64,000 nt of DNA from Escherichia coli (GCF_001677475.2 NZ_CP015229.1), one strand, 5' to 3'. Positions 26,713 to 29,304 are shown, counted from the first letter of the stretch. Made by a program: numbers and translations. Notes: generated from the letters alone by a model not told the origin.

Positions 26713-29304
26713 TCAGAACGACCAGACCACACCCGCCTGAGTATTCCACGGTGATTCTACCCCTGCGCCATTGCCATAGCTGACAGACAAATGACCGCTT
26801 AACGTCGGGGTAAACGATGACCTTATCCCAGCCTGATAAACGCCACGGGTTCCAGCCACATCATTATTAAATTTGCCATCGTCATTAACTTTCACCTGGT
26901 TAGAATCGGCGTATTCCTGACGCACGGCGGCTTTCAGCCAGGGTTCCAGTGTCGTACCGTTTTGCAGGTCCATGTGATAGCTTACCGCCGTTCCCGCTTC
27001 AGCGCGTAATATCCGGGTATTTCCCACATCCGCGCGCATGCCGTTTGATAACGTGTAGTCCTGACCATCTGTGGTAAAGCCGGTAAAGGCCAGATAAGGT
27101 CTAACACTCCACAATCCGTCAACCCAACGGAACCCGCTCTCGACATGAGCACCCACGCCGTTACTATTGTAATTGCCAAACGCTGTTGCCCCATTACTCA
27201 TCTTGCCATGGATGGTGTTGGAAAAACGGTCAACTTTCACCACCCCATCAACATAGGCACCGTTCTGATGCTCCCAACCGGCATAAGCCCCCAGGGTATA
27301 GCTATCGACATTGCCTTTGCCGCCGCGATCAAAACCAATATCAGAATGAGAGTAACCAAAGAACAAGCCGCGAATTGTGCTGCTTTCTTCTCGGGAGAAA
27401 CGGCTATCGATACCGAGCGTCAGCCCCGTCAATGTTTGCTCAAAGCCAGCTCCCGCATCAGTGGTCACGTTGTTGCGGGTGTTAATTGCCGAACTCCACA
27501 TCGCCGTATCGTAATTAACGCCTTTTACGCTACCAAGACGCTCACGCACGGTGTCCAGTTCTGCATCAAATACCAGCGGTTGTGCTGCCGCCATATTCAG
27601 CACATCAGTGGTTGAAGGGGTAATTTGCGCGCGATTCTCTGCCAGACTCCAGCTATGGTTGCCATTATCCAGCAAGGTATATTCATACGTACCGATATCA
27701 ACAACGCCTCCGGCATTGCCCAACGTAAATGCAGCATCACCGCCGCCCGTTGTTACCAGTGTAAGGCTATCACCTGCTGCCGGGCTGGCCCCTGTGTCCG
27801 TCACAAATATTTTGAAATCACCTGTTGCCTGACCGGTCACGTTGAGCTGATCGCTCTGATGATTAGCCATATCGGTACGCATATAAAAATTGCCGTTTCC
27901 CGACAGGGTATTAGTGGTCAATGTAATGAAATTTTCCGCACTTGCCGTCACTGATGAACGAGTCACTGGCTCATCCATCATAATCACATTTGCGTCAGAC
28001 ATCTCAAGGTTGGCTAAGTTGAGGAGGGTGTTTTGGTTCGTCGTAGTGATATCGGCAATGATGGTCCATACGCTATTTTCGAGCGAAACGTCCGCTTTGC
28101 TGGTATCCACGGCACCATGCGTTCTAAAAGAAGCGCCCTCAGAAACCACTACCTTACCCACCAACATTGCGGGCGCATAATTTATTTGCGGCTTCATGAC
28201 CTCAAGAATGCCATCATTCCCTCTGACTGAAACGTTAACCATTGTGCCAGCCCAGACGTTAGCGCGGCCATTGTTGATAACCATATTTTCAGAGATGGCT
28301 TTTGAGGAATACGTGATACTTCCATTCTGATCTGATCGACCGAGATCATATACCGCATTTGCCTGCACTCTCGTCCCAGTATCCTTTCCCAGCGATTGCA
28401 TAGTGGCATGCTCATCAAGGATAGTGTCAATGGCCTGCGTGTCCTCCATAACAATGAGCCCGGAACCATCATCCAGTTCATAATTTTTTGACACACCATC
28501 TTTTATACTAAATTGGCCTTTACTGTTTGTACCACTCACTTCCAGCGCATTCGTTGAGACAATTAATTTTCCGCCTGCTTTTTTATCAACGCCAGTTGCA
28601 GTCCCGCCATCCATAACCTCCAGTAAGCCGCCACTATCCACAGTGGTATTATAAGCGAAGTCATTTTCTTCAACTCGCAAACTTCCGCCGTTTTCCAACA
28701 ACATATTATTAGCAATACCATCCTTGATATCGAACTGACCGAGACGGTTTGTTCCGAATACCTCCATGGCCCGCGTGGTTGTTTTAATAGCACCGCCTGC
28801 TTTCTGATCTACCGCAATCGCTAATCCCCCCTCTTTAACCTCCAGTAGTCCTCCCTTTTCGATAGCGGCAAGGACGGTAATCCCATCTTTTTCAACGATT
28901 AAGCGCCCGCCTTTAATCGTGGGATCATTCGCTGCGCCATAAACCTGTAGCACACCATTATTGAGGGTAGTCTGGTTTGCCGCGCCACCCATTTGAACAA
29001 TTTGATAACCATCATTTAATACGGAGTATTCTGCGGTGCCATTCATTTCAATGTACTGATACCCGCCGTTAATTTCAGTATTACTACTTACACCAAATTC
29101 TTTTATATGCTGTTCTCCGCCAGGATTGATTTTCGTATTATTGGCGGTCCCATAAACCAGCTGGATATCTTTTTCCAGGACAACACCATCAACTGTCTCA
29201 CCATACTCAACTGTTGATGCCAATGCTATGGGTGAATATAACGCTGTAGCCACCAGAACAGATATTGCGGAACGACAAAGAGAAACAGAACCAGATTGAT
29301 GCAT
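26713..29304 (-). CDS. yejO: autotransporter (type Va) adhesin-like protein YejO, intact
   Basis: 863 aa; signal peptide; repetitive Gly/Val/Asn-rich passenger; C-terminal beta-barrel ending ...VVWSF. Confidence 0.88.
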   Translation of the reverse strand: MHQSGSVSLCRSAISVLVATALYSPIALASTVEYGETVDGVVLEKDIQLVYGTANNTKINPGGEQHIKEFGVSSNTEINGGYQYIEMNGTAEYSVLNDGYQIVQMGGAANQTTLNNGVLQVYGAANDPTIKGGRLIVEKDGITVLAAIEKGGLLEVKEGGLAIAVDQKAGGAIKTTTRAMEVFGTNRLGQFDIKDGIANNMLLENGGSLRVEENDFAYNTTVDSGGLLEVMDGGTATGVDKKAGGKLIVSTNALEVSGTNSKGQFSIKDGVSKNYELDDGSGLIVMEDTQAIDTILDEHATMQSLGKDTGTRVQANAVYDLGRSDQNGSITYSSKAISENMVINNGRANVWAGTMVNVSVRGNDGILEVMKPQINYAPAMLVGKVVVSEGASFRTHGAVDTSKADVSLENSVWTIIADITTTNQNTLLNLANLEMSDANVIMMDEPVTRSSVTASAENFITLTTNTLSGNGNFYMRTDMANHQSDQLNVTGQATGDFKIFVTDTGASPAAGDSLTLVTTGGGDAAFTLGNAGGVVDIGTYEYTLLDNGNHSWSLAENRAQITPSTTDVLNMAAAQPLVFDAELDTVRERLGSVKGVNYDTAMWSSAINTRNNVTTDAGAGFEQTLTGLTLGIDSRFSREESSTIRGLFFGYSHSDIGFDRGGKGNVDSYTLGAYAGWEHQNGAYVDGVVKVDRFSNTIHGKMSNGATAFGNYNSNGVGAHVESGFRWVDGLWSVRPYLAFTGFTTDGQDYTLSNGMRADVGNTRILRAEAGTAVSYHMDLQNGTTLEPWLKAAVRQEYADSNQVKVNDDGKFNNDVAGTRGVYQAGIRSSFTPTLSGHLSVSYGNGAGVESPWNTQAGVVWSF

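Follow-up and report, generated by a model that had tools for sequence, protein, structure and literature searches.

The 64,000-nucleotide stretch of Escherichia coli DNA analysed here (NZ_CP015229.1; hereafter the window) contains an open reading frame for a large autotransporter, which ends close to the border of a mobile island. This raises the questions of whether the frame is a gene of the chromosome or of the island, and whether its intact state deserves attention when the K-12 gene is broken. They were addressed through sequence integrity, domain architecture, synteny, the placement of the att sites and the terminator, and population frequencies, all of which were observed directly (Table 1). 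The frame starts with ATG, has no internal stops, ends with TGA at 26713-26715 and is preceded by an AGGA ribosome-binding site (Shine-Dalgarno) approximately 10 nt 5' of the start codon. All of its 2,592 nt (2,592/2,592) align to yejO as annotated in complete E. coli genomes, with 97.4-98.3 % nucleotide identity, and NCBI lists the identical protein, found on 46 contigs, under the name "autotransporter YejO [Escherichia coli]" (among others, ANO89988.1). A YejO-specific NCBIfam equivalog model was not among the matches, only the generic TIGR01414 scoring above its cut-off, and such an absent match does not contradict the assignment.

The position of the gene agrees with its sequence. It lies between proL, encoding tRNA-Pro (GGG), and narP, and is convergent with proL, the island being situated between proL and yejO and outside the gene. 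The order yejM-proL-yejO-narP-ccmH is conserved in S42, K-12 and 20 other genomes, and a megablast search with the region 26500-29700 matched the yejO-narP locus in 5,424 of 5,426 complete E. coli genomes. Beyond yejO the map continues with narP (29624-30271), ccmH, dsbE, ccmF and the nap operon. The mechanically predicted narP frame (29594-30271) begins at 29594 and has 225 amino acids, whereas the 215-amino acid narP annotated elsewhere corresponds to the ATG at 29624. Rfam matches elsewhere in the window were MicF, naRNA4 and the L25 leader (51453-51546, 55206-55282 and 11799-11824, respectively), all expected for this chromosomal region. The name yejO given in the initial annotation is thus upheld by locus order, full-length alignment and the NCBI protein name, and the frame is very probably the chromosomal core gene yejO in an intact state, with a classical (type Va) autotransporter of AIDA-I/Ag43 type as its product. 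Earlier records already cover yejO, the family and locus to which it belongs and its disruption by IS5 in K-12, and databases already contain the identical protein; the observation is correct but ordinary, as yejO is a known core gene and the intact form is one of those in which it is commonly found.

Table 1 Features of the yejO locus and the neighbouring island (positions in the window)
Feature	Position	Strand	Basis or remark
yejO CDS	26713..29304	-	863 codons + TGA stop, intact; 97.4-98.3 % nucleotide identity, ANO89988.1
Signal peptide, aa 1-29 (Arg11, hydrophobic core, ALA/ST cleavage motif)	29218..29304	-	sequence rule; AlphaFold2 pLDDT <50 at residues 1-27
Passenger, aa 30-561, right-handed beta-helix, ~19-aa rungs, pertactin-like C-terminal part aa 431-555	27622..29217	-	Pfam, AlphaFold2, Foldseek, phmmer
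Alpha-helical linker through barrel pore, aa 563-592	27529..27618	-	AlphaFold2; arrangement as in EspP, NalP and BrkA translocators
12-strand beta-barrel translocator, aa 600-863, ends with Phe863	26716..27507	-	PF03797, TIGR01414, 3QQ2 match, AlphaFold2 strands
Unoccupied IS5K site (K-12 position), gene nt 64-67	29238..29241	-	comparison with K-12
Codon 789, TGG (Trp) in the window, within barrel strand aa 785-797	26938..26940	-	TGA in 1,157 complete E. coli genomes
yejO-narP divergent intergenic region	29305..29623	.	37 % G+C on 29305-29593; no GATC
15-bp hairpin	26670..26703	-	after yejO stop
Bidirectional intrinsic terminator (A-run, CCAACC/GGTTGG stem, T-run), common to convergent proL and yejO	26621..26651	.	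core chromosome
attR core, 17-nt copy of tRNA-Pro 3' end	26597..26613	+	exact repeat search, alignment to island-free genomes
proL, tRNA-Pro (GGG), attL core at 15602-15618	about 15540..15618	+	tRNA/Rfam match, repeat
Integrase	15807-17066		in island
D5-type primase	19410-21215		in island
Capsid-E-like protein	22242-23369		in island
AlpA	23732-24115		in island
Nu1-like small terminase	24305-24859		in island
PerC	25681-26052		in island

The initial annotation had described the product as a complete 863-amino acid autotransporter with a signal peptide and a C-terminal barrel, and the open frame, the Pfam and NCBIfam domains and a structural model agree with this, the signal peptide being recognised by a sequence rule only. 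The N-terminus reads MHQSGSVSLCRSAISVLVATALYSPIALA followed by ST, with Arg11, a hydrophobic core and Ala at positions -3 and -1 (A-L-A, -3 to -1). Pfam identified AIDA repeats (PF16168, 2.2e-51), a pertactin domain (aa 431-555, 7e-46) and the autotransporter barrel (PF03797, aa 602-841, 1.4e-46), and TIGR01414 matched at 1.7e-112. The AlphaFold2 model, built on an alignment of 83 sequences, had a mean pLDDT of 89.8 and consists of a disordered signal peptide, a continuous beta-helix extending to residue 561 (strands 37-561, pLDDT mostly >85), a helix and then the barrel, with strands in residues 600-862; the protein ends with GVVWSF. In Foldseek searches the passenger was near Ag43 (7KOH, 7KO9, 4KH3), and the barrel matched those of BrkA (3QQ2, TM 0.89) and EspP (TM 0.81-0.86) as well as Hbp, NalP and the AIDA-I transport unit. 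TibA and pertactin were also among the passenger matches in phmmer and Foldseek, and in phmmer against the PDB residues 582-863 aligned to positions 3-284 of the BrkA barrel, which is 284 residues long. The features of type Va autotransporters were thus found along the whole chain: the N-terminal Sec signal peptide, as judged by the sequence rule, a beta-helical passenger with an autochaperone-like C-terminal part (Pfam, AlphaFold2, Foldseek), an alpha-helical linker and a complete 12-strand barrel with an aromatic C-terminal residue. The nearest representatives other than YejO have at most 46 % identity and match mainly in the barrel.

The passenger contains a 74-amino acid tandem module (aa 141-214 and aa 215-288, 47 % identical) overlying the rung period of approximately 19 amino acids, and the self-similarity of the protein accordingly peaks at offsets of 74 and 19. 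No repeats were found inside yejO at the DNA level, the module being visible in the protein only. Of the two copies, which together span 28441-28884 (aa 141-288) in the window, PEC145 has lost one in frame, leaving a protein of 789 amino acids which is annotated as intact; the passenger may thus vary in length through its repeats.

The K-12 copy had been described as a pseudogene disrupted by an insertion sequence, and this is the case. In K-12 MG1655 the annotation treats yejO (b2190) as a pseudogene of two pieces separated by IS5K, which breaks the gene after nt 67, and it is described as an IS-broken pseudogene also in PMC11005336 and PMC11677980. When IS5 is removed and the fragments are joined, 863 open codons are restored. 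Internal frameshifts or truncation, which the initial annotation had named as refuting its reading, were absent from the window copy when it was aligned to 21 full-length alleles. The implied contrast, that an intact gene is notable because the K-12 gene is broken, is nevertheless weak. From the ranked list of 5,424 complete E. coli genomes with a match, 30 records were drawn at regular intervals, and 11 of these carry an intact 863-amino acid yejO, O157:H7 included; with approximately 40 % of complete E. coli genomes intact, comparison with K-12 offers no meaningful contrast for this gene. The remaining records had an internal stop, W789* (9/30), the IS5 of K-12 type (2/30, from megablast coverage), an in-frame deletion of 222 nt equal to one 74-amino acid module (1/30, PEC145), or deletion remnants without approximately 1 kb of internal sequence and the barrel-coding end (6/30, two recognised by sequence and four by coverage), and in one only narP was present and yejO was absent.

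All nine internal-stop records carry TGG>TGA at codon 789, and seven of them also an ATG>ATT change of the start codon at 29302-29304, which was present in none of the intact alleles and, within the sample, only on the TGA background. Exact-word queries of 39 and 56 nt, taken from common haplotypes and run over 5,426 genomes, found the TGA word of codon 789 in 1,157 genomes and the TGG word in 2,512, the ATT start word in 781 and the ATG start word in 3,556; by megablast, 1,143 genomes held less than 80 % of the locus (26500-29700). In the AlphaFold2 model W789* removes roughly the last four barrel strands and the C-terminal Phe, a loss which, given how BAM recognises its substrates, should abolish barrel assembly. 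In a neighbour-joining tree of 22 full-length alleles, all W789* alleles fell into one tight clade, and W789* appears to mark a pseudogene clade of single origin, most members of which then seem to have lost the start codon. The gene is dispensable and often lost across E. coli, by W789*, ATG>ATT, IS5 and deletions. The reported truncation of YejO in all UPEC genomes, as PMC3426408 cites it from Wells et al. (2010), and its absence from ST131 (PMC5654935) fit this picture. The census gives a compact view of a dispensable, adhesin-like gene decaying by several independent routes and may serve as a guide for the choice of alleles in functional work on YejO.

The right border of the island was located through a 17-nt core, CTCTCGTGCCGACCAAA, which occurs exactly twice in the window, once at the 3' end of proL and once as attR. 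The position of yejO just outside attR, which the initial annotation had claimed, follows from these cores, the gene lying approximately 100 nt beyond the right repeat. The approximately 11-kb island between them (15619-26596) looks like a phage satellite (PICI-like). Relatives were found in 2,337 of 5,426 complete genomes, only five of which cover at least 80 % of it, and SA53-3 has a different island of the same type at the same proL site. On draft-genome contigs with the identical YejO, the gene likewise adjoins the PerC, Nu1 and AlpA island genes.

A terminator hairpin begins 8 nt past the attR core and lies 61 nt from the yejO stop codon (ΔG -15.6 kcal/mol, z -5.7, on one strand and ΔG -16.0 kcal/mol, z -4.0, on the other). 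A bidirectional terminator of the island had been proposed here; the hairpin and its distance to the stop codon were confirmed, but not its attribution to the island. In the junction alignment of the island-free S42 and K-12, proL is directly followed by AATCCCAA(G)AAAAAACCAACC(T/C)TTACGGTTGGTTTTTTT, the second hairpin and the yejO stop. As the terminator is outside attR and directly follows proL in these genomes, it is the native terminator of the convergent proL and yejO and no island feature, and descriptions of the island should leave it out. The second hairpin, directly 3' of the yejO stop and without a T-run, could be an mRNA 3' stabiliser; its pairing is kept in K-12 and S42, in K-12 via one-sided changes from C-G to U-G and from U-G to U-A. 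The satellite-type island has integrated into proL, upstream of this native terminator. The latter still separates the island from yejO and may still stop read-through from the island toward the gene, though it was not brought by the island.

From adjacency alone, with the attR core ending at 26613 and followed by the terminator and the yejO stop, yejO could be regarded as cargo or an accessory gene of the island and the terminator as the insulator of the latter. The tRNA-Pro gene, the same terminator, the hairpin and yejO are, however, also found in the island-free S42 and K-12 and in 19 other genomes, and homology to island-free genomes begins at window position 26593, at the att core. The island moreover has a hairpin and T-run of its own just inside attL (15655-15686), which after integration follows proL, the native terminator now being 11 kb away. 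Membership of yejO in the island, the probability of which is practically negligible, was rejected on the alignment to island-free genomes. How the window lineage came by an intact allele is a separate matter. In the tree the window allele is the long-branch sister of the W789* clade, carrying neither lesion, and its nucleotide distance to that clade (1.7-2.0 %) is smaller than to the other alleles (2.1-2.6 %), as might be expected if the lineage had not inherited an intact frame but had regained it, through recombination or reversion, from a pseudogene background with W789* and ATT. Yet the allele stands on a long separate branch outside the tight clade, the approximately 44-51 differing sites are spread along the gene, and the ccm genes alongside show the same divergence from every complete genome (98.4 % identity). 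These points make vertical inheritance of the ancestral intact allele the simpler explanation and re-acquisition highly improbable; the window lineage simply keeps the ancestral open allele. That lineage is unrepresented in the complete-genome collection, as its yejO (26500-29700) and ccm (30300-36600) regions reach no more than 98.4 % identity with any complete RefSeq E. coli genome that it contains. Among the 22 full-length alleles, A434E, A695S, D711N and A717V are private to the window allele and were counted against the preferred interpretation; a private SNP also lies 12 nt from codon 789.

Whether the inherited gene is in use is less easily judged. The frequent loss in other lineages shows that yejO is dispensable, and it could therefore be silent in the window lineage too: open but cryptic, transcriptionally silent and already freed from selection, a pseudogene-in-waiting with no current role. 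The inactivated copies seen in over half the complete genomes sampled, with at least four independent lesion types, are consistent with this, as are the AT-rich upstream region (37 % G+C) and promoter matches at chance level (five sites in the scan upstream of yejO against 6.1 expected, none above chance). The K-12 yejO region is almost never seen in RNA-seq, ranking 4501 among the least-detected genes of a compendium (PMC10392735), the K-12 copy being IS-disrupted. Against silence, the Nei-Gojobori dN/dS of the window allele to 10 others was 0.12-0.27, which indicates that purifying selection acted during most of the divergence; the start codon, ribosome-binding site, signal peptide, barrel and terminal Phe have been kept on a long private branch; and many E. 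coli adhesin genes are functional though silent in the laboratory. A silent gene is possible but doubtful, and yejO may be expressed in the window lineage. It may also be proposed, tentatively and as a rather unlikely generalisation, that yejO is a target of recurrent lineage-specific inactivation, by at least four independent lesion types and in more than half of complete genomes, while lineages like that of the window keep it under purifying selection. If true, this would suggest that in certain niches selection acts against the display of YejO, for instance because immune defences or phages target it, and the window allele, intact yet closest to the W789* clade, could serve as the natural reference when asking what was lost. 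Apart from the tRNA, Rfam matched nothing at the yejO locus. Phase variation of the Ag43 kind was considered for the divergent intergenic region and rejected, as no GATC sites were found in 29305-29593.

By analogy with characterised autotransporters, the 29-amino acid Sec signal peptide would bring YejO into the periplasm, BAM would insert the C-terminal barrel with its Phe end, and the linker helix would occupy the barrel pore. The passenger of approximately 530 amino acids would then be threaded outward as a hairpin, folding from its pertactin-like C-terminal part, to give an adhesin-like rod on the cell surface. Such export by Sec and BAM and surface display are probable from the architecture, and an Ag43/AIDA-like role in adhesion or aggregation may be envisaged from the same likeness.

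Compared with other yejO alleles (K-12 b2190; O157:H7 intact, e.g. WP_000554210.1), the window copy has the same locus, proL-yejO-narP, and the same length of 863 amino acids, and it is free of the IS5 of K-12, of the W789* and ATT lesions of the S42 type and of the deletions of the UPEC type. With Ag43 (Flu), AIDA-I and TibA, YejO shares the AIDA-type repeats of approximately 19 amino acids which form a beta-helix, as expected of the self-associating autotransporters, and the best PDB sequence and fold matches of its passenger were Ag43 (7KOH, 7.9e-37) and TibA (4Q1Q). It also matches the O-heptosylation target repeat TIGR04415 (63 bits against a cut-off of 30). YejO is nevertheless far below the NCBIfam equivalog cut-offs for Ag43 (142.9 against 1200 bits) and AIDA-I (72 against 1200 bits), its passenger has 22-29 % identity with Ag43 passengers in fold alignments, and its signal peptide is short, unlike those of Ag43, AIDA-I and TibA. 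The latter two have an adjacent heptosyltransferase gene, whereas the neighbours of yejO are narP and the proL terminator, and Ag43 has a Dam/OxyR GATC phase switch, whereas the region upstream of yejO is without GATC or OxyR-type sites. BrkA, Vag8 and pertactin of Bordetella belong to another genus and have other N-terminal passengers, and nothing points to a serum-resistance or C1-inhibitor-binding function of YejO, but the pertactin-like C-terminal part of the passenger and the barrel are common to them and YejO: residues 459-862 align to Vag8 (2e-36), and the barrel superposes on the beta-domain of BrkA.
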